A DNA stretch of 64,000 nt from a virus (lineage: Duplodnaviria > Caudoviricetes): positions 1 to 64,000 of the IMG/VR virus record IMGVR_UViG_2671180604_000001, one strand, 5' to 3'. Numbering within the stretch: position 1 is the stretch's first letter; every line of letters begins with the position of its first letter. The notes beneath the pieces were generated by a model, which had not been told where the DNA came from, searched no databases, and was given only the letters and a program-made list of their open reading frames with translations. Positions 17,165-62,778 of the stretch are shown piece by piece. The translations under genes and the position numbers were made by a program.

Positions 17165-17349
17165 TTTGGACCCTTCTAATAATTAAAGTTCAATTTAGAA
17201 GGTGGGTATTTTAAATACTTAAATTATAATTTTGGAACTATTCTAAAATTATGTCCTAATTTTATTTGAAAATTGTTCTTAAATTTTTATCTTAAAGCTC
17301 AAATATGTCTAATTATGCTCAAGATCAGAAATTCCTTTATGAGCATATG

Positions 17350-17376
17350 TGCAACGAAATTTCACTCGTTTAGAAA
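17350..17376 (+). repeat. Right copy of the 27-bp direct repeat (relic of the nuclease gene 3' end)
   Basis: TGCAACGAAATTTCACTCGTTTAGAAA. Confidence 0.8.
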
Positions 17377-17408
17377 AGTAAACCCAAATTCAGTGGAGTA
17401 GGAATAAA

Positions 17409-17753
17409 ATGCTAGAAAAATTTATTCAATATTGCCATTCAAAACGAGACGGCTTAAGTGATTACTACATCACTCAGACATATAAAAACATGCAAGAGTT
17501 GTTATATGTTCAGTTTTTAGAAGCAGAATTGCAGACTCAATTACAACTAAATGAAAGCTTGGAACAAAAGTTGAGTCAAGATAGTCAAATACTTCACAAC
17601 ATTATTGATATGGAAACCAGAAAAACTCAGAAATTGCAGAATCGAATCAATCATGTAATGAGTTTATTTGGTTGCCAGCAGGTAGTTAATCCAAACGATA
17701 TTATTGAAGCTTTATCAGGTGATATAGATCAATCACTTTATGAGGTAGATTGA
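17409..17753 (+). CDS. Phage hypothetical coiled-coil protein
   Basis: 114 aa, AGGA RBS. Confidence 0.7.
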   Translation: MLEKFIQYCHSKRDGLSDYYITQTYKNMQELLYVQFLEAELQTQLQLNESLEQKLSQDSQILHNIIDMETRKTQKLQNRINHVMSLFGCQQVVNPNDIIEALSGDIDQSLYEVD

Positions 17754-18160
17754 AGATGATTAATGATATGAATCAATTTAGTGTGGGTGAGAAGGTGCTT
17801 TATATTGGTTTATGGGGTTCGGATTTTAACTTAGTTGATGAAGTGGTAGGTATCGTTTGGGATGGTTTACTTCAGCGAAATAAGTATCTTATTAGAGACT
17901 CAGAATCAGGCACTGTAATTCAACAGTATGGCGATAACTATCGAATTGCTGATGCAGATGAAATTGCCATTGAGCATAGACTACGCTCTAACAATGGTAA
18001 GAATATATGTTCAAAAGGCGCACAAGAAATTATGAAATCTGAATCCTTTATTGATTATCTACTTCAATGTGAGAAAGTCGTTAAACAGTGGCCTGAATGG
18101 AAAGTTAGTAGCTTAAGAGATGCTTTTGACATGAACCCCTTATCTAAAATGAATGGGTAG
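17750..18160 (+). CDS. Phage hypothetical protein
   Basis: 136 aa, GAGGT RBS. Confidence 0.65.
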   Translation: MKMINDMNQFSVGEKVLYIGLWGSDFNLVDEVVGIVWDGLLQRNKYLIRDSESGTVIQQYGDNYRIADADEIAIEHRLRSNNGKNICSKGAQEIMKSESFIDYLLQCEKVVKQWPEWKVSSLRDAFDMNPLSKMNG

Positions 18161-18224
18161 AATGACTTGTCTAATATTATTGATTTGATGTATATTTGAT
18201 CAATTCAATAATTAGAGATATTTT

Positions 18225-18515
18225 ATGAAAACACAAAACATGACATGGGATGCACTGTTGGTTTTAGTGCTTGTACTTGCATTTTCTTTCTCAGTGGTTT
18301 GGTCACTTTTTCCCATTTTTATGAAATTTGTAATGCCAATTTCTGAGATGATGATTTCGATAGCAGCACAGCATCATAGTGATCTTTTATTTGTAATTTT
18401 CACATTAATTCATATAGTAGTTGTAATGTCTTATCTTGTACTTTTACCATTTAAAGTTGCTCAAGCAATTATCGACAAGATTCTTATTTCAAGAACTAAA
18501 AATATTACAGCCTAA
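18225..18515 (+). CDS. Small two-TM membrane protein
   Basis: 96 aa with two hydrophobic stretches. Confidence 0.6.
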   Translation: MKTQNMTWDALLVLVLVLAFSFSVVWSLFPIFMKFVMPISEMMISIAAQHHSDLLFVIFTLIHIVVVMSYLVLLPFKVAQAIIDKILISRTKNITA

Positions 18516-18527
18516 AATAATTTAGGT

Positions 18528-18594
18528 TGGAACAATCGCTTTTTTCAAATAGCTGTAATGTCAAAATCATCCTATGTAAAAATAGGGTGATTTT
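18528..18594 (+). promoter_or_regulatory. Late-promoter-like element plus RBS-covering hairpin
   Basis: TGGAAC 18528, AAAAT 18563 (29-nt spacer); inverted repeat 18563-18575 / 18582-18594. Confidence 0.75.
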
Positions 18595-18597
18595 TTT

Positions 18598-20658
18598 ATG
18601 TCTGAATTTAAGAGTGGTCTACAGTACGACGAACTTGGTTTTTTAATAGGGCTAAAGCAATCAAGTCGTGACGTATCAAAAATAGATAAGAACGTGGAGC
18701 AAATCCGCGATATTTTACTTAGTTTAGGGAAAGAGATAGAGAGTCAGTACTCAAGAGCTGAGAACGAACCAAGACCAAAATTAAGCGCATTAGAACAAGC
18801 ACTCATTGATGCCCAGATTAAACCAGCTGATTTTTCTGATCTAATCCGTGAACAAGCAAATCCATTGGTTCAATCCTCATTAGCTTTAGATCGAGCTGCT
18901 AAATCAATTGAAGACTTGATAGCTGAATCAAGAAAATCTGACGATAACAATGCTCAACCTAAAGCAAAGCCTAAACGCCGTGCGATTGAAATTAATAGCA
19001 CTGAAGACGTTATAAGAGAATTTGGTAATAACGATCGCCAACGTGATGCAAACGGGCGATATGTTGGTTCTAGTTCCGAACAAACAACTTTGAGTAAAGT
19101 TACACAGACTATTGGGACCGCAATTAAGGGTGTATTACCTTCAAATCCACAGGGTGTTGACCCAACGCTTGACGCTATTAATGAAGTTGCGACTGTACTA
19201 TCACCAGTGAAGCGAGCAGCTGGATTTATGCTGCGTCCGCTTACTGGTTGGATGAAGTCGCGAAAACGCAATGAACCATTGCCAAAAGAACAGAGTGACC
19301 ATAATCGTAAGCTGATCAAAGTACTAGAAAAGATTGCTGCAAACAATGGAGGTGGATTATTTGGTCTATTGAAAATACTACCATTAGCATTAGCTGGCTT
19401 AGGTTCAACTGTGGCTGCTGCTGTTGCTGGTTTAGGACCAATTTTAGCAACCGCCCTTGCTGGTGCAGTTGGTGCTTATTTGGGTAGTAAAATTCATGAT
19501 AAGTTAGATGAAACTGAAACTGGGCAAGCCGTTAATGAATTTATAGGTAATGCAGCAGCTCGAACTCTTGCTTCACTAGGTAATGATGCAGCGAAAGAAG
19601 TCGTAGAGGCACATGATAAAGCTGACGATGCCGAACGTTATAAGTCTAGAAAAGAAAATCCAGCATGGTACTCAAATGATGGCGTATATCGCTTTGCACG
19701 TAAACTTGGTGTCCAACGTTACATGAAAGAAAATACACCTGGTTCGATGCTCTACCAAAAACAATACGGTGGACAGGGTGTTAATGGTAATGAGGTAGCA
19801 CAGTTTGGAGCTGCTGCAAGTTCAGGAAAATTAGTTGGAAACAATACGGCTGAAAAAACTTTGGCTTTAATTCGTAAACATGAAGGTTACAAAGAAAAAG
19901 CATATTGGGATGTCAATGCCTATAGAGTTGGGTATGGAAGTGATACTTTGACTGATAAAAATGGAAAAATTACTTCTGTAAATAAAACTTCGACTACTGA
20001 TAGGAAAGGTGCTGAAAGAGATTTAGTCCGCCGATCTAAAATATTTGCTAATGAAGCACGAGAAAAAGTCGGAGCGGAAAATTGGGATAAATTACCCGAT
20101 GATACAAAGGCAGCCTTAACATCGGTTGCTTATAACTATGGTTCATTGCCGAAAAAAGTAGTGAAGGCAGTTCAAACAAATGATATCAGTCAAATTTCAG
20201 AATCTGTTCGAAGTTTAGAGTCTCACAATGATGGGATCAATAAAAATCGTAGAAACGATGAAGCTAATATCATCAAGAACTCAATTATAAGAGAACCCAA
20301 TAAATATGCAGATTCAAAAGGTAAAAGAACAGAATCTCACCCAGAACAAAAAGTAACGCAAATTAGTAATGCTGCTGAACTTTTAAAGCAAAAATCTAAA
20401 ATGAATCAGCCATTATTAAATTTAAAAACTCCAGTAACACCAACTGCTACTCGTACAAGTAATTTTGGATCGAGTTATATTCAACCAAAAACTGAAACTA
20501 CAATCCAGCCTGCAAAAGAGTTTTTAACCTCACCGAAACCACAGGAAGTAGTTGTTAAGAATCAAAATAATGGTACTATCAATCAAAATGTGAGCAATCG
20601 ATTGCTTGCTCATGCAATAACTGGCGGCTTAGGAATGGGGGATAAATGGAACGTTTAA
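18598..20658 (+). CDS. Tape-measure / P1 Sit-like virion protein with GH24-type lysozyme domain
   Basis: Helical N-half, Gly/Ala-rich hydrophobic segment, LIRKHEGYKEKAYWDVNAYRVGYG...ALTSVAYNYG...RRNDEA. Confidence 0.8.
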   Translation: MSEFKSGLQYDELGFLIGLKQSSRDVSKIDKNVEQIRDILLSLGKEIESQYSRAENEPRPKLSALEQALIDAQIKPADFSDLIREQANPLVQSSLALDRAAKSIEDLIAESRKSDDNNAQPKAKPKRRAIEINSTEDVIREFGNNDRQRDANGRYVGSSSEQTTLSKVTQTIGTAIKGVLPSNPQGVDPTLDAINEVATVLSPVKRAAGFMLRPLTGWMKSRKRNEPLPKEQSDHNRKLIKVLEKIAANNGGGLFGLLKILPLALAGLGSTVAAAVAGLGPILATALAGAVGAYLGSKIHDKLDETETGQAVNEFIGNAAARTLASLGNDAAKEVVEAHDKADDAERYKSRKENPAWYSNDGVYRFARKLGVQRYMKENTPGSMLYQKQYGGQGVNGNEVAQFGAAASSGKLVGNNTAEKTLALIRKHEGYKEKAYWDVNAYRVGYGSDTLTDKNGKITSVNKTSTTDRKGAERDLVRRSKIFANEAREKVGAENWDKLPDDTKAALTSVAYNYGSLPKKVVKAVQTNDISQISESVRSLESHNDGINKNRRNDEANIIKNSIIREPNKYADSKGKRTESHPEQKVTQISNAAELLKQKSKMNQPLLNLKTPVTPTATRTSNFGSSYIQPKTETTIQPAKEFLTSPKPQEVVVKNQNNGTINQNVSNRLLAHAITGGLGMGDKWNV

Positions 20659-21035
20659 TATTGTGTTTTTTATTCATATTTTTCAGCATTAATGTTCATG
20701 CAGATATGGTGGGATGTAAAGGATTATCAAAACAATCAGATTTGAATAATTGTGCTAATAATTTTTTAGCTAAAACCAATGAAAAGCTTAATAAAGTTTA
20801 TTCAAATTATTTGTCTGACTTGACACCTGATGAGCAATCCAAACTTAAAGAATCTCAAAAAATATGGGGGCAATTTAAAGATAAAGATTGTGCATTTGAA
20901 TCTTCTCCAGTTAAGAAAGGTTCAATGTATCCTTATGTTTTATCTTCGTGTTTAGTAAATCGTAATGAAATAAGAATAGTTGAGCTTGAGAATATGATGT
21001 CATGTAAAAACGGGACTGAGCCAAGCTGTATATAA
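20646..21035 (+). CDS. LprI-family (DUF1311) lysozyme inhibitor, exported
   Basis: Signal peptide; C..QSDLNNCA..LNKVY..LKESQKIWGQFKDKDC..CL...R pattern. Confidence 0.8.
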   Translation: MERLILCFLFIFFSINVHADMVGCKGLSKQSDLNNCANNFLAKTNEKLNKVYSNYLSDLTPDEQSKLKESQKIWGQFKDKDCAFESSPVKKGSMYPYVLSSCLVNRNEIRIVELENMMSCKNGTEPSCI

Positions 21036-21098
21036 GTATAGGCAATAAATTATTGGCTCATGCAATATCAGGTGGATTGGGTATGGGGGGGAAATGGA

Positions 21099-21392
21099 AT
21101 GGTTAAAAAAATAATATTTGCAGCAGTAATTGTTTCACCAATAATTGCAGTACATGCAGGATTTTTTCCATCTAAGGATATCCAAAAGCTCATTGAAAAA
21201 GCAGAGATTCTAAATGATAAGTGTCGTGGCGGATCTGGTGATGATCCTAAAACTATGAAAGCGTGTGAGGAACGTGATAATTTGATTCTAAAAATTGAAT
21301 CAAAGGGTTATTGTTGGGGTTCTATGAACAAAAATGTTTCCACTAATTTATATACCTGGATTCCTTGCAAGAAAGATGTCACAAGGAAATAA
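21099..21392 (+). CDS. Small exported Cys-containing protein
   Basis: Signal peptide MVKKIIFAAVIVSPIIAVHA; CRGGSGD...ACEER...GYCWG. Confidence 0.7.
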   Translation: MVKKIIFAAVIVSPIIAVHAGFFPSKDIQKLIEKAEILNDKCRGGSGDDPKTMKACEERDNLILKIESKGYCWGSMNKNVSTNLYTWIPCKKDVTRK

Positions 21393-21619
21393 AATATAAC
21401 TTTAAGAGAGTTAATATCAATTTAAACTTTAAAAAAATTCATTTTGAAAAGTCTGTTAGATGCTTTTTTTAGAAAGTTTAGGAAAATTATTAAATATTAT
21501 ATAAGTACACTTTTTGAGATGAAATTAATAGAAATTCTATGAGGAATTTATAATTTATATAGACATATTTTAATGTTTTTAATAAAGTAGCGCATTACTT
21601 TCTGTAGCCCTTTGAGTTT

Positions 21620-22393: not shown

Positions 22394-22433
22394 CTGAAGA
22401 ATATTTACTTAATATTTTAATTTGGGGGGATAT

Positions 22434-23182: not shown

Positions 23183-23193
23183 TTTCCTTTCAT

Positions 23194-23219
23194 ACAAAGT
23201 CTTGTATACAAGACTTTGT
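23194..23219. repeat. Perfect 26-bp palindrome
   Basis: ACAAAGTCTTGTA|TACAAGACTTTGT, 11 bp after the second micro-ORF. Confidence 0.75.
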
Positions 23220-24010: not shown

Positions 24011-24967
24011 CTAATCTATGTTTAAAAAAACTTTAACAGGTGCAACAGACTTTAAAGGATCCTCCTCTTGCGGAACATGCCCCAAATTTTCAAATTTCAC
24101 AAGTTGACTTTCATTAATGTCTTTGTGGAATTGATCTGCATACGCAACTGGGATCAAATTATCCTTTTCTCCCCAAAGAATTAAAGTAGGTTGGTTAATC
24201 AATTTAATCAGTTTGGAGTCTTTACTGCTATTAGGTATTTGTTTAAAGCGTTGTATCAATGCATGACGATTCCCAGCACGCAATGTAAGGTCATAATAAC
24301 GATCTACTAATTCAACAGTAACTTTATTCGGATCAGCGTAAACATTTCGTACGCTAGATTCAACCATCTTACGTGGCAAGGTGTACTCCATTATTTTGTT
24401 CAATAATGGGATTTTGGCAATTCTAAAACCAATTGGCATCGACTTAGAATTATCAGGATATCCTACCGCATCTACTAAAATGAGCTTATTTATTCGTAAT
24501 GGTTGTTTAAGAGCCGTATGCCACGCTAATGCTCCTCCGAATGAATTTCCTACTAATACGTATTGTTGAATTTCCATAATATCCAAAAATTCTTCTAAAA
24601 ATTCGACATAGTGATCCATTGTATAATTGTCATCGGGAAATGGACCTGTGAGTCCAAAACCAGGTAAATCCAAGCGAATGATCCGCCGTTGATGTTTGAG
24701 ATTTTGAGTCCAACCTTCCCAAGTGTGTAGGCTAGAAGATGTTCCATGCAATAACACAATGGGATTCGGATCGTCACGAGGACCTTCATCACGGAAGTGT
24801 ACATTCATTTTATCTACCATGACGAAATTTGATGGAGGGGTTCCCCATTTTGATTTTAGGTCGGTTAATGGTATGTCACTCGTACAACCCGTCATTGTAA
24901 TAATTAGAACCATTGAGAGCATCATAGTAATACCCGATCCGAAATAGTATCGTTTGAGTGCTTGCAT
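24011..24967 (-). CDS. Alpha/beta-fold hydrolase (lipase/esterase), probable lipoprotein
   Basis: LLHG, DLPGFG, GNSFGG nucleophile elbow, WGEKD, GHVPQEE; MTGC lipobox-like. Confidence 0.9.
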   Translation of the reverse strand: MQALKRYYFGSGITMMLSMVLIITMTGCTSDIPLTDLKSKWGTPPSNFVMVDKMNVHFRDEGPRDDPNPIVLLHGTSSSLHTWEGWTQNLKHQRRIIRLDLPGFGLTGPFPDDNYTMDHYVEFLEEFLDIMEIQQYVLVGNSFGGALAWHTALKQPLRINKLILVDAVGYPDNSKSMPIGFRIAKIPLLNKIMEYTLPRKMVESSVRNVYADPNKVTVELVDRYYDLTLRAGNRHALIQRFKQIPNSSKDSKLIKLINQPTLILWGEKDNLIPVAYADQFHKDINESQLVKFENLGHVPQEEDPLKSVAPVKVFLNID

Positions 24968-25009
24968 GACTATACTCCGTGTGATTTAGGTGAAATTAAC
25001 TAGGTTGGT

Positions 25010-25822
25010 TTAATTCATTTGATTAGCTCGATGACTAATGGAAAACTTACGCGCGATTTTAGTTGCACCTGTCAATTTTTGAGCTAAAAAGTTCATAGTT
25101 GGCGAGAAGTACGCTAGATGTATCCCCAAATCGAGAATAAAGCTCATTACATTAACAGATGCTAGATTTTTTTTGATAGCTCGAACAACCGCTAGAGCTA
25201 CTTCATTTGAGGTGCTGCTAGGTGTACCAAATGGTAAAATGACACCACTATCGGCAATCATGCCTGCATCACGAATAGGTCCTGGATAGATGGTGGATAC
25301 GCCCACACCAGTTCCATGTAAATCCATTCGAATACAATCAGCAAATCCGCGTAAACCATATTTGCTAGAACTATATAAAGATGACAATGAAGAAGGCATT
25401 TTCCCTGAGATTGAACTAACAAAAAGTAAATGTCCATGTCCACGTTCAACCATTTGTGGCATCAATCCTCTTGCTAATAAAATAGGTGCTCTTAAATTAA
25501 CAGTCAGGCAATTATCAATTTCTTGCTTTGAACAAGCTGTAATATCGTCGATACCAGGTAAGCCTGCATTGGCAATTAGAATGTCTACTTTACCCACTTC
25601 AGATAAAAGTCTTTCTAAATCTTCATCGCAACTTAAATCAGCAGCAATGAAAGATACGTCGTCAGCTGTACCACCTAGTTCCTTAGCAAATTGGGATAAG
25701 TTGGTTGTATTTCGACCACTTAAGATCAGTTGTGCTCCTTGAATCTTTAATTCGCGTGCGATCGCCATTCCAATCCCACCTGTAGCTCCAGTAAGTAATA
25801 CTCGTTTACCATTAATATCCAT
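25010..25822 (-). CDS. Short-chain dehydrogenase/reductase
   Basis: TGATGGIG, NAG, YSSSK. Confidence 0.92.
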   Translation of the reverse strand: MDINGKRVLLTGATGGIGMAIARELKIQGAQLILSGRNTTNLSQFAKELGGTADDVSFIAADLSCDEDLERLLSEVGKVDILIANAGLPGIDDITACSKQEIDNCLTVNLRAPILLARGLMPQMVERGHGHLLFVSSISGKMPSSLSSLYSSSKYGLRGFADCIRMDLHGTGVGVSTIYPGPIRDAGMIADSGVILPFGTPSSTSNEVALAVVRAIKKNLASVNVMSFILDLGIHLAYFSPTMNFLAQKLTGATKIARKFSISHRANQMN

Positions 25823-26142
25823 ATATGACTCCTACGTGTTCATATTTCGGGTTGTGCTAAAAATTATTATTTACCTTCGTCTTTTTAATCGTTGAATTCT
25901 CAAGAATGTTTGTCAGATCAAGAAAATTCAAGAAAGGAATTATCTTTAATCTTATGAATCTTAGAATTGATTCAATAGTGATGGCGATAAGTCTCATTTC
26001 TTTAGATAGATACTCTAGGAATAAATTAAACGAGTCGTTAGAATGTCAAACAGCGTAAAAGTTGTATTGTTCTAAAATGCATTTTGATTGTGATTTCACG
26101 CAAAGGTGTTAGGAAATTAAAACTCAAATTAGTAAAGGAAGT

Positions 26143-27129
26143 GTGAGCTCAGTCTATGTAAGAGCTTTGCTGGACTATCTGATAAATATTGGAATTGATC
26201 CAAAAAATCTTTTTGATAATGATCTCATCTCAGCCATCCATGCTCAAGATCGACGTATTTCTATTCCTGATTGGCAAAGGATGTTTGAAAAATCGATTGC
26301 GTTTACTAATGATTCGAATCTCCCGCTTAAAGTTGCTGAAATTCAAGAACCACGTTATTTAGGTATGCTTGGATTTGCCGCTATGAGTAGCCGAACACTC
26401 GGAGATGCAATTTCGATACTTGTCCGATTTGAACAATTGGTAGATGATGTTAATAGCGTACATTTAGTTGAAAAAAATCACCTTATAGAACTGCATTGGA
26501 TACCACTATCTGCATCCTCACCGATTTTTATGCAACTTTCTTTAGCTTGCTGGATAATTTTAGCCAGAATATTAACCAAACAGCCTACACTAGAGTGTGA
26601 AGCACATTTTAGCTTTAAAAAACCATTGAATCTTGAAGCCTATTATAGAATATTTGGAGATGCAGTGAGTTTTGAAGCAGAATCAACAAAATTAGTTTTC
26701 GATAAATCTTGGTTGAATTTACCTATTACTCTTTTTGATTCAGTGACCAATCATTTGTTAATAGGTCAAGCTGAAGAAATGCTACGAACAAAGAATCAAC
26801 CAGATTTTTTAAAAGACTTAAATCGCTATCTTTCTGCAAACCTAGCAACTAATCAGGTAACAATTTCCGAAGCTGCGAATGCTTTAAACCTTACCCCGCG
26901 AACACTGCAATTTAAACTACATGAACTAGGTTTAGGTTATAGAACACTCCTTGAAAAAATTCGACATGAACATGCAGAACGTTATCTCAAACATACGGAT
27001 TTAACGTTAAATGAAATTTCTTTTTTATTAGGTTACTTAGAGCAAAGTTCTTTTCAAAATGCCTTTAAACGTTGGACTGGTAAATCTCCAGGAAGCTTTC
27101 GTAAAAGTTTTGAGATATTTAAGCAATAA
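26143..27129 (+). CDS. AraC-family regulator (OruR-like N-terminal domain)
   Basis: C-terminal double HTH, EISFLLGYLEQSSFQNAFKRWTGKSPGSFR; divergent from SDR/hydrolase. Confidence 0.92.
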   Translation: MSSVYVRALLDYLINIGIDPKNLFDNDLISAIHAQDRRISIPDWQRMFEKSIAFTNDSNLPLKVAEIQEPRYLGMLGFAAMSSRTLGDAISILVRFEQLVDDVNSVHLVEKNHLIELHWIPLSASSPIFMQLSLACWIILARILTKQPTLECEAHFSFKKPLNLEAYYRIFGDAVSFEAESTKLVFDKSWLNLPITLFDSVTNHLLIGQAEEMLRTKNQPDFLKDLNRYLSANLATNQVTISEAANALNLTPRTLQFKLHELGLGYRTLLEKIRHEHAERYLKHTDLTLNEISFLLGYLEQSSFQNAFKRWTGKSPGSFRKSFEIFKQ

Positions 27130-27273: not shown

Positions 27274-27296
27274 GGGATGAACTGATTTAAGTTGGA
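27274..27296 (+). repeat. Right copy of the 23-bp direct repeat
   Basis: Runs into the TGGAAC promoter motif at 27293. Confidence 0.9.
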
Positions 27297-27333
27297 ACAG
27301 CCATACTTAAAAGAGATTATATTACTTCAAAAT
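27293..27333 (+). promoter_or_regulatory. Late-promoter-like element
   Basis: TGGAAC 27293, AAAAT 27329 (30-nt spacer). Confidence 0.7.
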
Positions 27334-27361
27334 ATCCTTATAGAAACACAAGGCTTTTATT

Positions 27362-27888: not shown

Positions 27889-27915
27889 AAAAAGACTACT
27901 TCGGTAGTCTTTTTT
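27889..27915 (+). terminator. Intrinsic terminator
   Basis: AAAAAGACTAC-TTCG-GTAGTCTTTTTT (cUUCGg loop). Confidence 0.85.
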
Positions 27916-27917
27916 AA

Positions 27918-27958
27918 TGGAACAAGAATAAAAAGTAACAGGTTCAAAGCAATAACCT
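27918..27958 (+). promoter_or_regulatory. Late-promoter-like element
   Basis: TGGAAC 27918, immediately after the terminator; TAACCT 27953. Confidence 0.6.
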
Positions 27959-27982
27959 TAGCTAATAGCTTTGGAGTTTGCC

Positions 27983-28348
27983 ATGTATCTTAACTATCAA
28001 TCTGTTATCGTCGATATTTTCATTATTACTTCATTCATTTTGCACGTATATCTTGCATTTGGCAGTATTAAAACAATGTCTGGCCCTTTATCGGCTTTAT
28101 TAAATAAGGGTGTAACGGATGTTATTTATAAGAAAGTAAAACGATTGATTTTTGGTTTGTCCTTTCTTTGTCTTTCCCTTACTTGTCTTGTTACTTGGCG
28201 AAGCTATGAATTGCTTTTATTCCTGAATGTGAATGGTTATGGACTTTATATTCTTTTAGCTACTTTTCTTCTGTATAGCTTTGCAATTTTAGCAGCTTTT
28301 ACTTTCTGTAAATTGTTGCTGATGACAGCACAAAGGTCAGGCTTATGA
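27983..28348 (+). CDS. Three-TM membrane protein, candidate holin
   Basis: Three hydrophobic helices, GGAG RBS, behind a late-type promoter. Confidence 0.45.
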   Translation: MYLNYQSVIVDIFIITSFILHVYLAFGSIKTMSGPLSALLNKGVTDVIYKKVKRLIFGLSFLCLSLTCLVTWRSYELLLFLNVNGYGLYILLATFLLYSFAILAAFTFCKLLLMTAQRSGL

Positions 28349-31236: not shown

Positions 31237-31326
31237 AGATTGGAACTCAAGAAAACTAAGTGAACTTAGCAATGGTTTTATGTAGTTGTTTGATGAAACA
31301 ACATAAACCATTGTTAGGATTTATAC

Positions 31327-33254: not shown

Positions 33255-33321
33255 TGGAACATATAGAAATAAGAATATTTTAATTTGCAAAAATAGCCCT
33301 AATACACAATCTATTGGGGCT
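33255..33321 (+). promoter_or_regulatory. Late-promoter-like element plus hairpin
   Basis: TGGAAC 33255, AAAAT 33290; inverted repeat 33295-33304 / 33312-33321. Confidence 0.75.
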
Positions 33322-33326
33322 TTTTC

Positions 33327-35576: not shown

Positions 35577-37565
35577 ATGGCTCTAAAACCACTTAAAGAT
35601 ATCCCCGAATGGTGGGAACTTTGCGCACGTTATCGTTATGATATCTATGCCTTTGCAGTAGAGGCTTTAGGTGTTACACCGACTTGGCAGCAAGAACTAC
35701 TATTTGAGTCAATCCAGTTTGATGGTAGCCGTACATCGGTTGCATCTGGGCATGGTTGCTTTGGTAAAGGTACGAAAATCCGTTTAGCCAACGGGAAGTG
35801 GAAACGTGTTGAAAAAATAACAATAAATGATGCAGTAATGGGAACAGATGGCTTTTCACCGCGAGAAGTGATCAAAGTTGTACAGGGATACCAAGAGCTA
35901 TATCAATTTGAATATGCCAATGGTTCAAAGCATGTCTATAACAAATCTCACATTCTTTGTTTAGTCTCACTCGAAACAAAAAACGGTTGGAAAGCTGGCG
36001 ATACCATTGAAGTCCTGGTATCGAAATACCTTGAATGGCCTGAAGAAACCAAGTGCCAATTTGCAGCATATGAACTGAAACATAGAAAATTCCAGCCTGT
36101 AAAAATTAATAGCGTCACAGCCTTGGGAGAGGGTGATTATTACGGCTTTGTCCTCGATGGTGATGCAACTTTTCTAACAGCTGATGGCATGGTTCACCAT
36201 AACACTGGTAAAACTGCATCGGCTGGTATCGTTGCTTTATGGCATCTATTGTTCTTTGTTGAATCCATTACGATGTTCACTGCTCCGCAAATCGGGCAGT
36301 TAAAGAAACAAGTCTGGAAAGAAATCAGTATTAACCTGTCACGTCTAAAAGCTGGACCATTGGGATGGCTTGCTGATTATATCGGTTATCAGTCTGAATT
36401 AGTCTATATCAAAGGCTATAAAGAAAAGTGGTATGTCTTTGCAAAAACAGCACCTAAGCACCAGCCAACGAACTTGGCAGGGAACCATGCAGATAATTAC
36501 TTGCTATGGGGTGATGAGGCAAGTGGTATTCCTGATGAGGTTATGGATGTTGTCCTAGGTGCTTTGACGCATGAAGATAACAGAGCTGTTTTAACTTCAC
36601 AGCCGACACGTAACGCAGGATTATTCTATGAGACACATCATAAATTAAGTCACAGAGCCGGTGGTATTTGGATTGCTTTAACGTTCAATGGAGAAGAATC
36701 TCCATTAGTAAGTAAGCAATCATTAGAAGAACAACGTCAGAAATACGGTAGCCGTGACGATCCTCAATACCAAATCCGTGTTTTAGGTCGCTTTCCAGAC
36801 CGTGCTGATGAGTTCTTAATCACGAAACGACAATCCGAAGAAATGTATGTCGGTGCATCGATTTTCGAAGAACACGTTTTTGGTTATGTGATTACAGTCG
36901 ATGTAGGCGGTGGCGTTGGGCGAGATGATTCTGTAATTGCTGTATCGAAAGTTTGGGGTGAAGCTCAATGGGGAGATCGAGCACGCCGTGTTGAAGTTGT
37001 TGATATTCCACTTTGTAAGAATAGAGATGACATCACAGAGCTTTTTGCCAAGATTAATGAATGCATTTTGAAATATCCTAATGCAACTTTGGTTGTTGAT
37101 GATAATGGCGCTGGTAAAGGTTTAGGACAACTGCTTAAGAAACATGGTATTTGGTTTATGCCTGTTTATTGGGGAGGTGCATGCTTCAATAATGACAATC
37201 GTAAAGAGTATGTAAATAAACGTGCCTTGGCTTATGTTTGTCTTAAACGTGCAATTGAATCGGGTCGTTTCAAAGTTAAAACGAAAAAATTCTTAGTCAA
37301 GATTCAAGATCAAATAATCAAGATCCCTTATACATTTGATGAGCACAGCCGTTACAAGATTCTAAGTAAAGATGAAATGAAGCGGAAAGGGATTAAATCT
37401 CCCGATCTTGGTGACGTTTTCGCATTCTTATTCTTAGAAAATGTGTTCTATACAGAAGCATATGAGAATGTTGTTATTGCAGATGATAGTCCAGAAGCAC
37501 AGGAACGGGCAGAGCGTAAATCTAGGTTTGATCAACTTAAAGAAGCAGCAAAGAACATTGATTGA
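35577..37565 (+). CDS. pacB: Terminase large subunit (P1 PacB-like) containing an intein
   Basis: Walker A SGHG/TGKT split by the intein, Walker B WGDEASG, nuclease VDVGGG, SPDLGD. Confidence 0.9.
   Translation: MALKPLKDIPEWWELCARYRYDIYAFAVEALGVTPTWQQELLFESIQFDGSRTSVASGHGCFGKGTKIRLANGKWKRVEKITINDAVMGTDGFSPREVIKVVQGYQELYQFEYANGSKHVYNKSHILCLVSLETKNGWKAGDTIEVLVSKYLEWPEETKCQFAAYELKHRKFQPVKINSVTALGEGDYYGFVLDGDATFLTADGMVHHNTGKTASAGIVALWHLLFFVESITMFTAPQIGQLKKQVWKEISINLSRLKAGPLGWLADYIGYQSELVYIKGYKEKWYVFAKTAPKHQPTNLAGNHADNYLLWGDEASGIPDEVMDVVLGALTHEDNRAVLTSQPTRNAGLFYETHHKLSHRAGGIWIALTFNGEESPLVSKQSLEEQRQKYGSRDDPQYQIRVLGRFPDRADEFLITKRQSEEMYVGASIFEEHVFGYVITVDVGGGVGRDDSVIAVSKVWGEAQWGDRARRVEVVDIPLCKNRDDITELFAKINECILKYPNATLVVDDNGAGKGLGQLLKKHGIWFMPVYWGGACFNNDNRKEYVNKRALAYVCLKRAIESGRFKVKTKKFLVKIQDQIIKIPYTFDEHSRYKILSKDEMKRKGIKSPDLGDVFAFLFLENVFYTEAYENVVIADDSPEAQERAERKSRFDQLKEAAKNID
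35757..36203 (+). mobile_element. Mini-intein (149 aa, no homing endonuclease)
   Basis: Starts CFGKGT, block B NKSH, block F YYGF..DGD, ends HHN followed by Thr(+1). Confidence 0.92.
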
Positions 37566-37566: not shown

Positions 37567-37641
37567 TGGAACTGAACGCTTAAGAAGCGGTTCTAAAATA
37601 CCAAAATAGCCATAGTGATAAATAGGTGATCTATGGCTATT
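37567..37641 (+). promoter_or_regulatory. Late-promoter-like element plus hairpin covering the start codon
   Basis: TGGAAC 37567, AAAAT 37603; perfect inverted repeat AATAGCCATAG 37605-37615 / CTATGGCTATT 37631-37641. Confidence 0.78.
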
Positions 37642-42742: not shown

Positions 42743-42782
42743 TGGAACCTTAGAGAATAAAAATAGTATTTTCTTTAAGAAT
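42743..42782 (+). promoter_or_regulatory. Late-promoter-like element
   Basis: TGGAAC 42743, AGAAT 42778 (29-nt spacer). Confidence 0.6.
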
Positions 42783-42815
42783 GTCTATATCAAATTAAGT
42801 GAAGTAATAAAGTTA

Positions 42816-43118
42816 ATGACTTATTTAGTTTTCAAAGAAAAAGGCAAGAATATAGGTGATAAAGGCATGGTTGCTCAATGCACTTCTGCTATTTTTAATT
42901 ACCAGGTGATCGGTGCAGGGGCAGTGGTTGAATTCTTTGGTAGTAATCATCCTTCTCCCGATATTAGCGATGAAGATCATTGGATCACTATTGCGACAAT
43001 CACCGCTGGTATTCCTGACACAGAACCATTTCGACAACATGCGTGGGATAAATTGCGCTATGTTGTAACCGCAGGTAATGATGTTGAAATCTATGTTTCA
43101 AGTGGTGTATCTGGCTAA
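42816..43118 (+). CDS. Small beta-rich virion protein (100 aa)
   Basis: ATG 42816 lies just downstream of the promoter motif; the longer 42528 start overlaps the fiber gene. Confidence 0.65.
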   Translation: MTYLVFKEKGKNIGDKGMVAQCTSAIFNYQVIGAGAVVEFFGSNHPSPDISDEDHWITIATITAGIPDTEPFRQHAWDKLRYVVTAGNDVEIYVSSGVSG

Positions 43119-43194: not shown

Positions 43195-43234
43195 TGGAAC
43201 TGAACAAAATCAGGAATTTTCTACATGCGAAATT
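43195..43234 (+). promoter_or_regulatory. Late-promoter-like element
   Basis: TGGAAC 43195, GAAATT 43229. Confidence 0.6.
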
Positions 43235-43273
43235 AGGTTATCAATTTTCATAAACCTATTTGCAGGTGAAAAA

Positions 43274-45986: not shown

Positions 45987-46013
45987 AAAACTCTGCTAAA
46001 TGCAGAGTTTTTT
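45987..46013 (+). terminator. Intrinsic terminator
   Basis: AAAACTCTGC-taaat-GCAGAGTTTTTT. Confidence 0.8.
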
Positions 46014-46018: not shown

Positions 46019-46058
46019 TGGAACATAAGAGATTTTAAATAAACCACAAGTGCAAAAT
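46019..46058 (+). promoter_or_regulatory. Late-promoter-like element
   Basis: TGGAAC 46019, AAAAT 46054 (29-nt spacer). Confidence 0.72.
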
Positions 46059-46088
46059 AACTAAAACGTTTAGCCAAAGGCAAACAAA

Positions 46089-48474: not shown

Positions 48475-48484
48475 AAGCATCCAG

Positions 48485-48544
48485 TTGACATTCTAATTAA
48501 TCATACTAATATAAGTGTATTACAAAATAGTTTGTAATACACTT
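48485..48544 (+). promoter_or_regulatory. Sigma70 promoter and 14-bp inverted-repeat operator
   Basis: TTGACA 48485, TAATAT 48507; AAGTGTATTACAAA-atag-TTTGTAATACACTT 48513-48544. Confidence 0.7.
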
Positions 48545-48555
48545 TGGTGCGTACT

Positions 48556-49233
48556 ATGGTTATGAAAAAGCAAAATCGTCCATTAAGTTTACGAATTGAC
48601 GATTCACAGCAACCTTATATCGATCTTTTAAACCGAGCAAGCTTGTCTACAAGTGAGGGTATTCGAATGTTAATTGAGCGTTCTTTAAATCAAATTAATC
48701 AAATTGATTTATCAAATTTTAATGTAAATATCGAATTTAATTGGAATAAAACTTCCAATAATTCATTTCCAGAAAATGTTGGGTGTTTGCGCGTTAATGT
48801 TACACCACCGCAAAATCTGAGTAATGAAGACTTACACAGAATCGTTTTTTTGATTCCTGAGTTTTTAAAAAGTAATGCCACCAATAGCAGTGAATATGAG
48901 CCGTTTCGTATAGATTCATATTATTTTCATAGAGCAACTAATGGAAGAGTTGGATTCGAAAGTACGAAAGTACGTAGAAATACACTGGGATTTAGATTAA
49001 TTGATAACAAATGGAGAGCTGGAATTTTTTATTATGATTTCAATGAAATTGATTTAAAAGCTTTAGAAACTGAAATAACGCAACGCTTAAAAGAGCATAT
49101 TGAATCATCGATTATTCTTTTTATGATTGGGCAATTATCTGTAGAAAGGGTTCTAAAGGATGATGAACTAAAAACTTTTAATTCGATTACATATAAACAC
49201 AATATTGAAGCAAGTGATCTGTCTTTTGAATAA
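48556..49233 (+). CDS. Moron: RHH-like DNA-binding N-terminus plus unknown domain
   Basis: RPLSLRIDD...STSEGIRMLIERSL; own promoter/operator. Confidence 0.7.
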   Translation: MVMKKQNRPLSLRIDDSQQPYIDLLNRASLSTSEGIRMLIERSLNQINQIDLSNFNVNIEFNWNKTSNNSFPENVGCLRVNVTPPQNLSNEDLHRIVFLIPEFLKSNATNSSEYEPFRIDSYYFHRATNGRVGFESTKVRRNTLGFRLIDNKWRAGIFYYDFNEIDLKALETEITQRLKEHIESSIILFMIGQLSVERVLKDDELKTFNSITYKHNIEASDLSFE

Positions 49234-49287
49234 AATTTTAATGATGGTTTAGAATAAAATTTGCTAAACCATCGCCTTTTAATAATT

Positions 49288-49327
49288 CGGAACACTTTAA
49301 TTTTTGAAATTATTTAGCATTCATAAT
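49288..49327 (+). promoter_or_regulatory. Late-promoter-like element (CGGAAC variant)
   Basis: CGGAAC 49288, CATAAT 49322. Confidence 0.6.
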
Positions 49328-49354
49328 TGATGTATCTATTAAGATTTGAGAATT

Positions 49355-51359: not shown

Positions 51360-51875
51360 ATGATGAATGGTTTCAAAAAAGCCAAAATCTTGAGTTACGA
51401 TGCGCAAGGCAGAACTGCAAAGATTCATATACCAGGTCTTACAGATGGAGCTAGTAATGGATTAACAGCTACTTTTGCCTATCCCGTAGGTGATAGCGAC
51501 AAAGATACTGAACGCGAAATCTTAGAGGGTGAGGATGTATATATCTTCTTTGAAAATAATGAACAATCGCGTCCTGTCATCGCCTTTTACAGTAGTCATA
51601 GCAAAGAAGCTGTAGTTGACATTCGCCGTATTAGACAAGAAAACATTGAAATATTGGCAAGAACAGAAATTACTATGGATGCACCAACTATCCATTTAAA
51701 AGGAAAAGTGATAATTGACGGGGATATTGTCCACACAGGTGATCAAACTACGACAGGGACTATTTCAGCGACTGATGATGTTATTGCAGCAGGTATTTCA
51801 GGTAAATCGCATCCTCATACTGGTGTTAGAGGCGGAACAGATAATAGTGGTCCGCCGTTACCATCTGGAACTTGA
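51360..51875 (+). CDS. Baseplate central spike (gpV/gp5-like)
   Basis: OB-fold N-terminus, beta-helix, C-terminal HPH metal-binding apex (SGKSHPHTGV). Confidence 0.85.
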   Translation: MMNGFKKAKILSYDAQGRTAKIHIPGLTDGASNGLTATFAYPVGDSDKDTEREILEGEDVYIFFENNEQSRPVIAFYSSHSKEAVVDIRRIRQENIEILARTEITMDAPTIHLKGKVIIDGDIVHTGDQTTTGTISATDDVIAAGISGKSHPHTGVRGGTDNSGPPLPSGT

Positions 51876-51906
51876 TTGATATATCAAACTTATAACAAGC
51901 CAAAAT
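51866..51906 (+). promoter_or_regulatory. Late-promoter-like element
   Basis: TGGAAC 51866 (inside the last codons of the spike gene), AAAAT 51902. Confidence 0.7.
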
Positions 51907-51935
51907 AGTTGTAATTGTTAATCTTTGGCGAATAT

Positions 51936-55383: not shown

Positions 55384-55451
55384 TGGAACTAGTCAGGTTT
55401 CTTAAACTTTCATAATGAAATAATTGCCTCAATCAGAAAAATATTGAGGCA
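55384..55451 (+). promoter_or_regulatory. Late-promoter-like element plus RBS-covering hairpin
   Basis: TGGAAC 55384, ATAAT 55420; TGCCTCAAT 55425-55433 / ATTGAGGCA 55443-55451. Confidence 0.75.
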
Positions 55452-55459
55452 TTTTTTAA

Positions 55460-57361: not shown

Positions 57362-57374
57362 GGAAAAGCTTTAA

Positions 57375-57692
57375 ATGAATGGCTTAGAGAAGTTAAAACT
57401 TACGAAAGAATTACGTACTTTACTTGAGCAGATCCCGAATCTAAAAGGAATGGAGAAACTTCAAAGCGCTAAGCGATTACGTGAACTGCTTGAGTTGCTT
57501 GGTGGAAAGTCTAATGAGGCCGTGAATAAGCTGTTTCAGTCTATCATTGACGGTGATGTCAAAGTTTCTGTTGAGCTACTACAAAATGTTCGTAGTGAAG
57601 CCGAGAAAAACTTAGATGACCCACTATTACTTGAGGCGGTAAATGTCTTGATAGCTCAAGTTAATGAGATAGTTGGAACTGAGCAAGCTTAG
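57375..57692 (+). CDS. Small dar-operon protein with DarA-C-like domain
   Basis: LEKLKLTKEL N-terminus; LFQSIIDGDV...LLEAV resembles the DarA C-terminus. Confidence 0.6.
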   Translation: MNGLEKLKLTKELRTLLEQIPNLKGMEKLQSAKRLRELLELLGGKSNEAVNKLFQSIIDGDVKVSVELLQNVRSEAEKNLDDPLLLEAVNVLIAQVNEIVGTEQA

Positions 57693-57735
57693 ACAAGCAA
57701 TAAGCTTTCAAAATAGTCCTTAAATGGGCTATTTT
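57674..57735 (+). promoter_or_regulatory. Late-promoter-like element plus hairpin
   Basis: TGGAAC 57674, AAAAT 57710; AAAATAGTCC / GGGCTATTTT. Confidence 0.75.
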
Positions 57736-57749
57736 TTTGAGTTTTATCT

Positions 57750-60578: not shown

Positions 60579-60604
60579 TCAAAAAATATTGTAGCAATCT
60601 TCAT

Positions 60605-60656
60605 TATGTTTTAGATCAACATTGGGGGGATTTCTCCCATGTTGATCTAAAACATA
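60605..60656. terminator. Long hairpin after ddrB
   Basis: Perfect 18-bp arms TATGTTTTAGATCAACAT / ATGTTGATCTAAAACATA, plus an inner G/C stem. Confidence 0.6.
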
Positions 60657-60745
60657 CTTATTATAGCTAAATATTATTTAAAATATTGAATTGAAACAAT
60701 ATGTTCTGATATATTCTTGATGTATGTAAATAGGTTAAATTTTTT

Positions 60746-61909
60746 ATGAAATTAATGTCGAGAAAACAAAGGAAATATTTTAAAAATATTCGCCATTATC
60801 GTTTCTTAGCTATTCAAAAGCCAAATAAACAAAAAAGAAGAGAAAGAGATGTATCAAAAGCTAGAAAAAAAAGAAATAAGCTGAAACTAGCTTCTGAACG
60901 TATTAATATTTATTTAAAAATGCCTACAAATGTAACGATTATCACGAGAAAAATACGTGGTGAGTTGATTAAAATTACAAGAAGGTTTAGAGAGTTTTAT
61001 CATCGTACTAATATTTGCCTGAATTTAGATTTTTCAGATACCAAGAAGATGTTTGCTGATGGCACTCTATACTTCTTAGCAGAACTTGACTCATTAATTA
61101 TTCTGAATAAAGACATTACTTTTAAAATCACATTTTCTAATGAAAAAATTGTAAATCAAGTTCTTGAACAAACAGGAATTCTTAAACTATTAAATAAAAA
61201 AATGAAATTTGATGATGAAGAGTTTGACGATACTGTGAAGTATTGGAATTATGCTTCTGGACACAATTCTGAAATTGATTCAGCAGATTCTATGTTAGAT
61301 GATTTCGATCAAATTCTTGCTTCTACAACGAGTCGAGATGTATTTACTGTATTAACTGAAGCTTTAACTAATTGTCATCAACATGCTTATATTGAAAAAC
61401 GTTTTCCAACTGCTCCAAAATCAATAAAAAAATGGTGGCTCTTTTCTGAGATTAGAGAAGATAAGTTAACAGTATGTGTATGTGATTTAGGGGTGGGGAT
61501 TCCTAACTCTTTAAAAGTTGACTCACCAGACGTACAGCAAAATTGGTTTCAGGTACTCAAAGATTTCTTAGCTAAACATAAAGTTAAGAATGATTTTGAT
61601 GGAGCAGCAATCAAGGCAGCTATTGAAATTTCTAATACAAGGACCAATTTACCAAATAGAGGTAAAGGGCTTAATCAGATCATCAACAAAGTTAATACAA
61701 TTAGTGACGAAAAGGTGTCTGTGGCAATTTACAGCAATAAAGGTTCCTATATAATTAATAGAGGACTTGTGACAGACTTGGAAAAAACAGGTATTGTTGA
61801 CGGAATTTCTATTCCGTACAAGGAATCTATTGAAGGTACGTTAATTGTTTGGAGTATACCTTTAGATAAGCAACCAAATAACCAAGATTTGGTGGTGTCA
61901 GATGAGTAA
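60746..61909 (+). CDS. STAS-like domain fused to a GHKL (RsbW/histidine-kinase-like) ATPase
   Basis: LNLDFSDTKKMFADG (STAS-like); N-box EALTNCHQHAY, G1 DLGVGI, G2 RGKGL, GT; Lys/Arg-rich N-terminus. Confidence 0.8.
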   Translation: MKLMSRKQRKYFKNIRHYRFLAIQKPNKQKRRERDVSKARKKRNKLKLASERINIYLKMPTNVTIITRKIRGELIKITRRFREFYHRTNICLNLDFSDTKKMFADGTLYFLAELDSLIILNKDITFKITFSNEKIVNQVLEQTGILKLLNKKMKFDDEEFDDTVKYWNYASGHNSEIDSADSMLDDFDQILASTTSRDVFTVLTEALTNCHQHAYIEKRFPTAPKSIKKWWLFSEIREDKLTVCVCDLGVGIPNSLKVDSPDVQQNWFQVLKDFLAKHKVKNDFDGAAIKAAIEISNTRTNLPNRGKGLNQIINKVNTISDEKVSVAIYSNKGSYIINRGLVTDLEKTGIVDGISIPYKESIEGTLIVWSIPLDKQPNNQDLVVSDE

Positions 61910-62240
61910 AAATGTAATGAAAATCAATGTAGCATCAGATTTCTCGAAGAATCCGTCTGGGCGTTATATTTTAGATGGTAAAACATCTGGCGAAGCATTT
62001 TTAAAAAATGTTTTGTTACCTGCCGTGAAAACGCATGATTTTGTCGAAATAAATTTTGATGGTGTACGTGGATATGGTTCATCCTTTCTAGAAGAGGCGT
62101 TCGGTGGTTTTATTCGTGAAACCAAGATGTCTGTTGCAGATTTTTTTAAGAAAATTAAAATTATTTCTCAAGACCCTTTTTTATTAATCGAAATTAAGGA
62201 ATATCTTGAGGATGAGTCTAAAAGGATATTGTCTGCTTAA
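61902..62240 (+). CDS. STAS-like DUF4325-type protein
   Basis: GRY..DG..SGEAF...INFDGVRGYGSSFLEEAFGG. Confidence 0.8.
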   Translation: MSKNVMKINVASDFSKNPSGRYILDGKTSGEAFLKNVLLPAVKTHDFVEINFDGVRGYGSSFLEEAFGGFIRETKMSVADFFKKIKIISQDPFLLIEIKEYLEDESKRILSA

Positions 62241-62704
62241 TGGCTCCTTGGATTAAAGACTCTATATTACCTTTTCTACCTTCACTACTCACTATCTTAG
62301 GGTGGTGGATAGTTGGTAGAAGGGATGGTATTGGTAAGAAAAAAGAAGCCCATAATCGAAGAGTAAACTTAGCTATTGAGCAGTCTCAAAAAATTTATGA
62401 ATCTGCAAAAAAATTCTATCTTTTATCTGGTTCAGCTCCAGAAGCTTCTGCGTTAGAAGATATGTTAAATTGCGACTTTAGAAGACTGAGCACGATCCTT
62501 GGTCTTGTAAACAAAAGCTTAATTTCTGAAAATCAAAAGCAATCGATAGGTAATTCATTCATCGAATATAAAAAAGTAGTTACTGGTGGGCAATTTGGTA
62601 CAAGATCTAGAAATGCATACCCCTTGAACCATCTGCTTTTTGTAGAAATAGATAATACTTATAATGATTTTTTTCTAGAACTTGAAAAAATTATGCAGAT
62701 TTAG
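62240..62704 (+). CDS. Membrane-anchored helical protein (putative effector)
   Basis: N-terminal TM SILPFLPSLLTILGWWIV; 1-bp overlap with the STAS gene. Confidence 0.7.
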   Translation: MAPWIKDSILPFLPSLLTILGWWIVGRRDGIGKKKEAHNRRVNLAIEQSQKIYESAKKFYLLSGSAPEASALEDMLNCDFRRLSTILGLVNKSLISENQKQSIGNSFIEYKKVVTGGQFGTRSRNAYPLNHLLFVEIDNTYNDFFLELEKIMQI

Positions 62705-62714
62705 TGATTATCAT

Positions 62715-62778
62715 TGGAACTCAGAAATAGTTCACTTTTAAAATATTTAAAATAGCTCTATTAACCTAGGGCTATTTT
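62715..62778 (+). promoter_or_regulatory. Late-promoter-like element plus RBS-covering hairpin
   Basis: TGGAAC 62715, AAAAT 62749; AAAATAGCTCTA / TAGGGCTATTTT. Confidence 0.75.

Follow-up and report, generated by a model that had tools for sequence, protein, structure and literature searches.

The middle and late promoters of phage Mu, which depend on Mor and C, are read by sigma-70 and combine a usable -10 hexamer with a poor -35, the activator site overlapping positions -35 to -50; both activators bind dyad-symmetric sites as dimers. In the P2 Ogr/P4 Delta system, a single small phage activator, which acts upstream of a -10 hexamer with a weak -35, turns on each of several late operons; the Ogr site is a dyad, TGT-N12-ACA, near -55. 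According to the main text of PMC10695390, late promoters of phage P1 lack a -35; they combine a -10 hexamer with a further element, upstream, that serves a phage activator. Here we describe a recurrent element of another kind, TGGAAC (the box) followed at a nearly constant distance by an A-rich hexamer, in the virus record IMGVR_UViG_2671180604_000001. We analyzed its first 64 kb (positions 1 to 64,000; the window). The record is a single sequence of 74,330 bp with a GC content of 36%, classed as a provirus.

The source of this DNA is an integrating Acinetobacter prophage with a lambdoid early region, comprising an S24/helix-turn-helix (HTH) repressor gene (4009-4773, minus strand), a cro-like gene, an O-like initiator gene, and a RusA-like gene. 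The virion genes follow this region and are distant homologues of those of P1; in particular, the portal protein shares ∼25% identity with P1 Prt, and the large terminase 33% with P1 PacB. The nearest named phage is Acinetobacter phage vB_AbaM_ABMM1 (ABMM1), with ∼71% nucleotide identity over part of the tail region.

Judged from sequence, the box and hexamer form a real and conserved family of promoter-like elements, which is very probably the late promoter of widespread P1-related temperate phages of Acinetobacter and Moraxellaceae. We consider it likely that these are activator-dependent sigma-70 late promoters with the box at -47 to -42, no -35 element, a cAAAAT -10 hexamer and, as the most likely activator, an XRE-family protein. 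Five to seven of the 15 copies are nested in terminator-like hairpins. The element most likely represents a late-gene promoter not described before. The freely available main texts that we searched, including PMC10695390, PMC5795418, and PMC10345192, yielded no description of the box, and the word "promoter" does not occur in the main text of the ABMM1 paper (PMC10345192).

Occurrence, conservation and anatomy of the element

The initial annotation of the window listed 14 boxes, and all of them, 13 TGGAAC and one CGGAAC at 49288, are found where it placed them. Taken literally, [TC]GGAAC-N28-30-A[ATG]AAT fits 12 of the 14 sites and fails at 27918 (TAACCT) and 43195 (GAAATT). A hexamer with A at the second and T at the sixth position (A2/T6) lies 27-29 nt past the box at all 14. 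The TGGAAC at 31241 does stand alone, with no A2/T6 hexamer at 27-30 nt. The distance of 30-50 nt to a gene start that had been given for the boxes is correct for the interval between the -10 box and the start codon, but not for TGGAAC itself, which lies 66-82 nt before the ATG at 13 of the 14 window sites. A fifteenth full copy, outside the window at genome position 65625 and ahead of lysis-like genes, is 69 nt from its ATG, which makes 14 of 15 sites in total. At the 27918, 49288, and 51866 sites, this ATG, the true start, is downstream of the TTG chosen by the open reading frame (ORF) caller.

Shuffled intergenic DNA had been proposed as the control, and the element clearly exceeds it. In the intergenic test set (33 pieces, 5707 nt in total), motif and spacing together occur 13 times on the plus strand and never on the minus strand, while across 1000 shuffles the mean was 0.148 and the highest count 2. 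Over the window, TGGAAC-N28-30-AAAAT is found nine times on the plus strand and not on the minus strand (500 dinucleotide shuffles: mean 0.22, maximum 2), and the histogram of spacings has a single sharp peak at 28-30. TGGAAC by itself is not enriched, with 36 matches versus 27.2 ± 5.0 expected, a number reached by 7 of 100 shuffles; its matches are strand-biased (27 plus, 9 minus). A position weight matrix (PWM), trained on 105 sites that all come from other genomes, ranked 12 of the listed sites, 65625 being counted among them, as the top 12 plus-strand matches in the genome. Their scores are 17.8-31.5, compared to 13.9 for the next-ranked match and 1.9 for the best match on the minus strand. 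By the same matrix, the copies at 43195, 27918, and 49288 are weaker.

The cassettes (box, spacer, and hexamer) head the conserved virion, anti-restriction, and lysis blocks, with 14 copies in the window and the copy at 65625. Between 17.1 and 64 kb, the full motif is present in 14 of the 24 gaps of at least 35 nt that precede a plus-strand gene. Seven of nine box-less gaps precede genes without a homologue in four compared relatives, and the accessory genes between the blocks carry no motif.

The same arrangement is conserved in ABMM1 and 18 IMG/VR relatives, as well as in phage-plasmids and distant prophages of Moraxellaceae. ABMM1 has 12 copies at spacing 30 on the plus strand and none on the minus strand. 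In the 18 IMG/VR relatives (portal 64-96% identical, GC 36-50%), there are 20 plus-strand copies at spacing 29 and 63 at spacing 30, with 0 and 1, respectively, on the minus strand. An alignment of the sequences upstream of the portal gene in nine relatives has as invariant positions TGGAAC, C-A-x-A-A-T, an ATT near the predicted start, two bases of the Shine-Dalgarno (SD) region, and the ATG; every column of the spacer varies among these nine orthologous promoters.

To describe the anatomy of the element, we used 119 non-redundant sites. The gap between box and hexamer is 29 nt in 86 of them and 28 nt in 24, and the commonest hexamer is CAAAAT (54 of 119). Exactly 7 nt past the hexamer there is a further conserved A (1.0 bit), with a T before it. 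The flanks show T's just upstream of the box and a weak A..ATT ∼9 nt downstream of it, at -36 to -31, and nothing resembling TTGACA at -35. The signature of a sigma-70 -10 hexamer, A2 and T6 located ∼7 nt before a purine start, is present at all 14 listed sites, the start site being predicted. With the hexamer set at -12 to -7, the box would occupy -47 to -42, in agreement with the activator site at about -45 that the initial annotation had suggested. Its remark that no -35 is evident also holds: a scan for consensus promoters called no -35/-10 promoter at any of the 12 sites that lie between 17 and 57 kb, and no TTGACA-like hexamer was called 16-18 nt upstream of the -10 at these sites. As there is no -35, the promoter should stay silent until a phage protein binds the box.

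The cassettes would thus be read by the host sigma-70 RNA polymerase at a cAAAAT hexamer that always keeps A2 and T6 and lies 28-29 bp past the box, transcription probably starting at the conserved A 7 nt further on. A phage protein bound to the box would recruit or stabilize the polymerase. In a search of sequencing runs, no RNA run contained more than 0.13 of the words sampled.

The same spacing could be read differently, with TGGAAC as the -35-like element of an alternative sigma factor, either phage-encoded or a host extracytoplasmic function (ECF) sigma, and the A-rich box as the start region. The ECF-type -35 consensus contains GGAAC, the 28-30 nt between the two boxes approximate the spacer, -10, and discriminator of an ordinary promoter, and some spacers in this AT-rich phage contain TAnnnT-like hexamers. 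However, the genome has no match to the Sigma70_r2 and Sigma70_r4_2 profiles, and the conserved downstream box carries A2/T6, the mark of a -10 hexamer. Moreover, the spacers (28-29 nt) of the GC-richer relatives are neither AT-rich nor conserved in any column, and they lack a -10-like element, including at 16-18 nt past the box. We therefore regard an alternative sigma factor as improbable. The sigma-54 consensus is TGGCAC-N5-TTGC; a sigma-54 reading was rejected, as no TTGC-like element follows the box.

Hairpins at the proposed promoters

The initial annotation described the boxes as often standing right after a terminator. This is the case at only four of the 15 sites (27918, 46019, 49288, and 65625), which have a terminator-like hairpin upstream, while at five to seven sites the hairpin is downstream of the -10 box, nested in the promoter. 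The 5' arm of such a hairpin is formed by the -10 and discriminator, the loop starts near +1, and the SD sequence is in the 3' arm, which is followed by a T-run and the ATG. Perfect nested stems of 9-13 bp are found at 18528, 33255, 55384, 57674, and 62715, and weaker ones at 37567 and 43195. None of the four sites with an upstream hairpin has a nested one, compared to 7 of the 11 others, and four of the 15 sites have neither. The simplest reading is that each junction between operons has a single terminator, which either precedes the promoter or is interleaved with it.

Folding is also evident in the larger set. A 48-nt segment taken from the 119 sites has a mean z of -1.88, with z < -2 in 56, whereas 300 random windows have a mean z of -0.16, with z < -2 in 33. 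The last paired base of the 5' arm lies at hexamer +10 to +16 in 63 of 89 hairpins. The stems vary in sequence from site to site, and hence the structure is kept rather than the sequence. Covariation within one orthologous hairpin, the one before 55460, was uninformative, as the stems there are near-identical among relatives; the case for structure is based on the differing stem sequences at different sites. No Rfam 15 family matched the window at the gathering score.

For activator-dependent promoters, the nesting would have a simple consequence. RNA arriving from upstream would fold the hairpin and either be terminated or have its SD sequence hidden, while RNA begun at the promoter itself would lack the 5' arm and be translatable.

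A strong hairpin with a T-run directly past the A-rich box, as seen at 5 of 15 sites, would also be expected of a Q-type antitermination unit. In such a unit, a weak constitutive promoter would lie at the box, AAAAT would be a sigma-dependent pause, and a phage antiterminator would override the hairpin and T-run as a terminator. The lambdoid early region is compatible with this, and so is the pair of conserved genes (see below) in the position of Q, after the RusA-like gene. Still, the two Q-family profiles, PF06530 and PF03589, have no match in the genome, no clear leader hairpin is seen at 8 to 10 of the 15 sites, and no conserved -10 is found upstream of the A-rich box. One terminator per junction fits better, because the four sites with an upstream terminator never have a leader hairpin. 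We consider a Q-type unit quite improbable.

The least probable alternative, in our estimate, is that the cassette acts in RNA, as a processing site or translational operator within a polycistronic late transcript, or that the A-rich box is the A-tract of a bidirectional terminator and TGGAAC has an unrelated function in DNA. The fixed distance of 66-82 nt to the start codon, the SD sequence in the 3' arm, and the pairing of AAAAT with the T-run would all suit an RNA element. Against it, TGGAAC is invariant as a sequence and has no pairing partner, and the A-rich box is kept at 42743, where there is no hairpin, as well as at 46019 and 65625, where none is nested. In addition, Rfam offers no match in the window, and A2/T6 holds where the other hexamer positions vary.

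Candidate activators

The initial annotation proposed a phage-encoded factor other than P1 Lpa, and no member of the Lpa family is detectable in the genome: tblastn with P1 Lpa gave only chance matches (E 4.2 or worse), and a six-frame search with phrog_1704 gave none at E up to 10. The Mor (PF08765) and Ogr_Delta (PF04606) profiles likewise have no matches in the genome. The non-virion genes common to ABMM1 and three full IMG/VR relatives are only three, adjacent and in the same order, coding for the RusA-like protein (9580), the XRE-family HTH protein (10278), and a 286-aa protein (11009). Of these, the XRE-family protein (10302-11006) would be the most likely reader of the box, possibly together with the 286-aa protein.

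The XRE and 286-aa genes are also found as a pair in more distant elements. In the phage-plasmid NZ_CP110255, the two proteins are 27-28% identical to those studied here and are encoded beside a VRR-NUC gene; this plasmid has GGAAC and an A-run 28 nt before the hexamer seven times. The phage-plasmid NZ_CP029389 has AGGAATA as its box, and its XRE protein, 434 aa long, is a tandem duplicate fused into one chain. The fused protein (L053:32314-33618) has two different helix-3 sequences, and the promoters of this plasmid carry a second box, A[A/G]AAAC, ∼10 bp past the first. The pair is also adjacent in five distant Moraxellaceae prophages; four of these five loci carry GGAAC-type sites, and one, L070, has the box CGCAAAC. 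Overall, the profile of the 286-aa protein matches 16 of 251 sampled Moraxellaceae genomes.

Helix 3 of the XRE protein, as aligned, reads [KR]NR[IL]SE[MIL]ENG in all six GGAAC-type lineages, QNLLSQWETG in L070, and NNRIVELETG in the AGGAATA lineage. As this recognition helix is altered in the same two lineages that have a different box, the XRE protein is the leading activator candidate. The third helix of the 286-aa protein differs even among GGAAC lineages, and since helix 3 of the XRE protein tracks the box while this helix varies, the XRE protein is favored as the specificity determinant. Searches of PDB sequences gave only generic XRE HTH matches for 10278-11006 and none for 11009-11869 or 8779-9183.

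We think it rather unlikely that the 286-aa protein (11009-11869) instead reads the box, alone or as the DNA-binding half of a complex, with the XRE protein in some other role such as timing or repression and with the same promoter architecture. Its gene adjoins the XRE gene in every lineage examined, and its profile, as described above, is spread over Moraxellaceae genomes, with GGAAC-type sites at most of the distant loci. In the AlphaFold model (predicted local distance difference test score, pLDDT, 68), an N-terminal domain of three helices is followed by a disordered linker and then by a long coiled coil. The N-terminal domain is the best-conserved part; it is small and has a basic helix, and a domain so modeled could read a 6-bp asymmetric box as a monomer. 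But its third helix varies among lineages with the same box, unlike helix 3 of the XRE protein, and an Atlas feature search pointed to small terminase subunits (score 0.93, 161 shared features, below the guide value of 170). A Foldseek search of the model against PDB gave no match at E <= 0.001, and weaker matches of coiled-coil and homeodomain-like type were set aside. No PacA homologue was found elsewhere in the genome, and hence the 286-aa protein may fill the PacA role.

Two other genes were considered and rejected. A zinc-finger-like ORF of 134 aa (8779-9183), as an Ogr-like activator, is absent from the relatives G001, G003, and G005. The AraC gene (26143-27129) is absent from all four relatives and lies beside host-like metabolic cargo.

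ABMM1 has a full copy of box and hexamer upstream of its operon of RusA, XRE, and 278-aa genes (L002:19516-19560; ABMM1 59516), and there is none at the equivalent place in the studied genome. In ABMM1, this copy would give positive feedback.

Several points weigh against activator-dependent promoters governed by the XRE protein. We infer promoter function, start site, late timing, and the identity of the activator from sequence. In the 119-site alignment, conservation of the hexamer columns is there by construction, as the sites were selected for A2/A4/A5/T6; only its flanking columns and the portal alignment of nine relatives are free of this selection. Many of the 119 sites are orthologous, so that the counts overstate the number of independent events. 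A clear nested hairpin is missing at 8 to 10 of the 15 sites, and thus the hairpin logic does not apply throughout. Where there is a hairpin, AAAAT also pairs with its T-run, and the conservation of this tract could therefore partly reflect terminator structure. The covariation between helix and box comes from two variant lineages among related sequences that were not rooted, and one of the six GGAAC lineages, L068, shows a single site only. As the gene pair always travels with the P1-like virion module, co-occurrence cannot separate a regulator from structural linkage, and the 286-aa protein may simply be the small terminase. Dimeric binding to dyads is usual for XRE proteins, and the box has no evident second half-site, only the weak A..ATT. 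The AlphaFold model of the XRE protein is unusable (pLDDT 47).

A broader reading seems to us possible, if somewhat doubtful: the XRE proteins would form a new HTH family of late activators that has diversified together with the box (TGGAAC, AGGAATA, and CGCAAAC), with a fused tandem in one lineage. Recognition of the -35 would be replaced by recognition one helical turn further upstream, at about -44.5. Furthermore, the promoters would lie inside the terminator of the preceding operon, and the choice of start site over ∼45 bp would set whether the RNA is terminated and SD-masked or translatable.

Neighboring features and known late systems

The features discussed above are collected in Table 1.

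Table 1. Late-promoter-like cassettes and candidate regulator genes in the window (TGGAAC or CGGAAC, the box; Nx, spacer of x nt).
Feature	Position	Strand	Description
XRE-family HTH protein	10302..11006	+	234 aa from ATG 10302 (ORF from 10278); leading late-activator candidate
286-aa protein	11009..11869	+	Possible partner, alternative activator, or small-terminase-like protein; always adjoins XRE gene
Cassette	17233..17280	+	TGGAAC, N29, GAAAAT 17268-17273; predicted +1 ~17280; PWM 20.6; atypical, next ORF of at least 80 aa starts 176 nt past box (17409)
Cassette before tail-tip lysozyme-like gene 18598	18528..18597	+	TGGAAC, N28, CAAAAT 18562-18567; predicted +1 ~18574; nested 13-bp hairpin and T-run 18563-18594, SD in 3' arm, called terminator-like by tool
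Cassette before 27362 (Hdf/DarA-like)	27293..27361	+	TGGAAC, N29, CAAAAT 27328-27333; weak hairpin only
Weaker cassette before ATG 27984	27918..27983	+	TGGAAC, N29, TAACCT 27953-27958; 11-bp terminator-like hairpin upstream, 27889-27914; ABMM1 orthologue has TACCCT at same spacing
Box-only TGGAAC	31241..31246	+	No A2/T6 hexamer; long hairpin follows; status uncertain
Cassette before 33327	33255..33326	+	TGGAAC, N28, AAAAAT 33289-33294; predicted +1 ~33301; top PWM score, 31.5; nested 10-bp hairpin and T-run 33295-33321, called terminator-like by tool
Cassette before tail-fibre gene 37633	37567..37632	+	TGGAAC, N29, CAAAAT 37602-37607; box directly after end of upstream terminase ORF (35577-37565); imperfect long hairpin includes start codon
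Cassette before ATG 42825	42743..42824	+	TGGAAC, N28, AAGAAT 42777-42782; no hairpin
Weaker cassette before 43274 ("head vertex protein" in ABMM1)	43195..43273	+	TGGAAC, N28, GAAATT 43229-43234; PWM 11.4; short nested hairpin 43234-43258; A2/T6 kept in orthologous L011 and L012 sites
Cassette before 46089/tail sheath block	46019..46088	+	TGGAAC, N28, CAAAAT 46053-46058; terminator-like hairpin upstream, 45987-46011
Cassette before tail tube gene (ATG 49355)	49288..49354	+	CGGAAC, N28, CATAAT 49322-49327; 11-bp hairpin upstream, 49242-49274; orthologous sites in relatives are TGGAAC
Cassette before portal gene (ATG 51936)	51866..51935	+	TGGAAC in 3' end of upstream gene, N29, CAAAAT 51901-51906
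Cassette before 55460	55384..55459	+	TGGAAC, N29, AATAAT 55419-55424; predicted +1 ~55431; nested 9-bp hairpin and T-run 55425-55451
Cassette before 57750	57674..57749	+	TGGAAC in 3' end of upstream gene, N29, CAAAAT 57709-57714; nested 10-bp hairpin and T-run 57710-57735
Cassette before PmgG-like gene 62785	62715..62784	+	TGGAAC, N27, TAAAAT 62748-62753; nested 12-bp hairpin 62749-62778

The record begins exactly at the stop codon of an excisionase-like gene (window 1-264) and ends exactly at the start codon of the integrase gene (genome 73104-74330), and therefore it was cut at gene boundaries; its CheckV completeness is given as 69. In the early region, three near-identical AATTTACCTnnTAGGT(A/G) dyads at 4774-5117, between the divergent repressor gene (4009-4773, minus strand) and the cro-like gene (5118), are probably immunity operators. 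TGGAAC also occurs at 6422, 6485, and 6492 (minus strand), within a cluster of CCAACAT-type short repeats (6422-6497) inside the O-like replication initiator gene (6109-7053). These repeats resemble origin iterons and are unrelated to the late motif.

Several groups of genes appear to be cargo. Between the regulator genes and the late genes, 12699-16075 encodes an AAA ATPase (PF00004) and a subtilase S8 protein (PF00082); none of the four full relatives has this pair, which therefore looks like accessory cargo, possibly of a defense type. Host-like cargo at 24011-27129, an alpha/beta hydrolase and a short-chain dehydrogenase (minus strand) beside the AraC-family regulator, has no late motif and is absent from the relatives except for one weak match (26%) to a short-chain dehydrogenase elsewhere in G003. 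A three-gene accessory cassette at 60746-62704, between virion operons, encodes a protein with a weak HATPase_c_2 match, a DUF4325 STAS-like protein, and a 154-aa ORF; it likewise lacks the late motif, and none of the four relatives has homologues of these genes. The accessory gene 48544-49233 has its own near-consensus promoter, TTGACA-16-TAATAT (48475-48543), and the loop of the hairpin after it reads CAAAATAG, the same words as in the late -10 region.

The prophage family is common: a single cluster of 286-aa proteins is found on at least 1000 contigs, whose sources name A. baumannii. Once such a promoter is defined and has a candidate activator, sequence alone would suffice to annotate the late operons, prophage induction could be followed with reporters driven by the box, and promoter parts that are tightly off or on would follow for Acinetobacter. 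A promoter nested in a terminator would also be a compact design for insulation.

The Mu middle and late promoters are functional analogues of the promoters proposed here, although the box is asymmetric and no Mor-family match is present. The P2 Ogr/P4 Delta system is likewise a functional analogue, without an Ogr_Delta match in the studied genome. The nearest comparison is P1, whose activator Lpa (gp10) acts with the host protein SspA and is not detectable here. As the initial annotation had noted, P1 late promoters use a different, Lpa-dependent element near -22 (P1 record annotation; main text of PMC10695390). In LPhot and LPpac, that element consists of a 9-bp inverted repeat at -22 (AAGTTACTT and ATGTGACTT), while the box is an asymmetric hexamer at -47 to -42; no conserved column indicative of a P1-type -22 repeat lies between box and hexamer in the 119 sites or the nine portal promoters. 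The gene order is similar: in P1, lpa is upstream of pacA, and here the candidate activator gene immediately precedes one that may code for a small terminase. Should the 286-aa protein indeed have this role, the XRE gene would, by analogy, sit exactly at the place of lpa. Both phages have many separate late operons, each with its own promoter, and the present system would join P1 Lpa as a second worked case of the coordination of many scattered late operons in P1-type phages.

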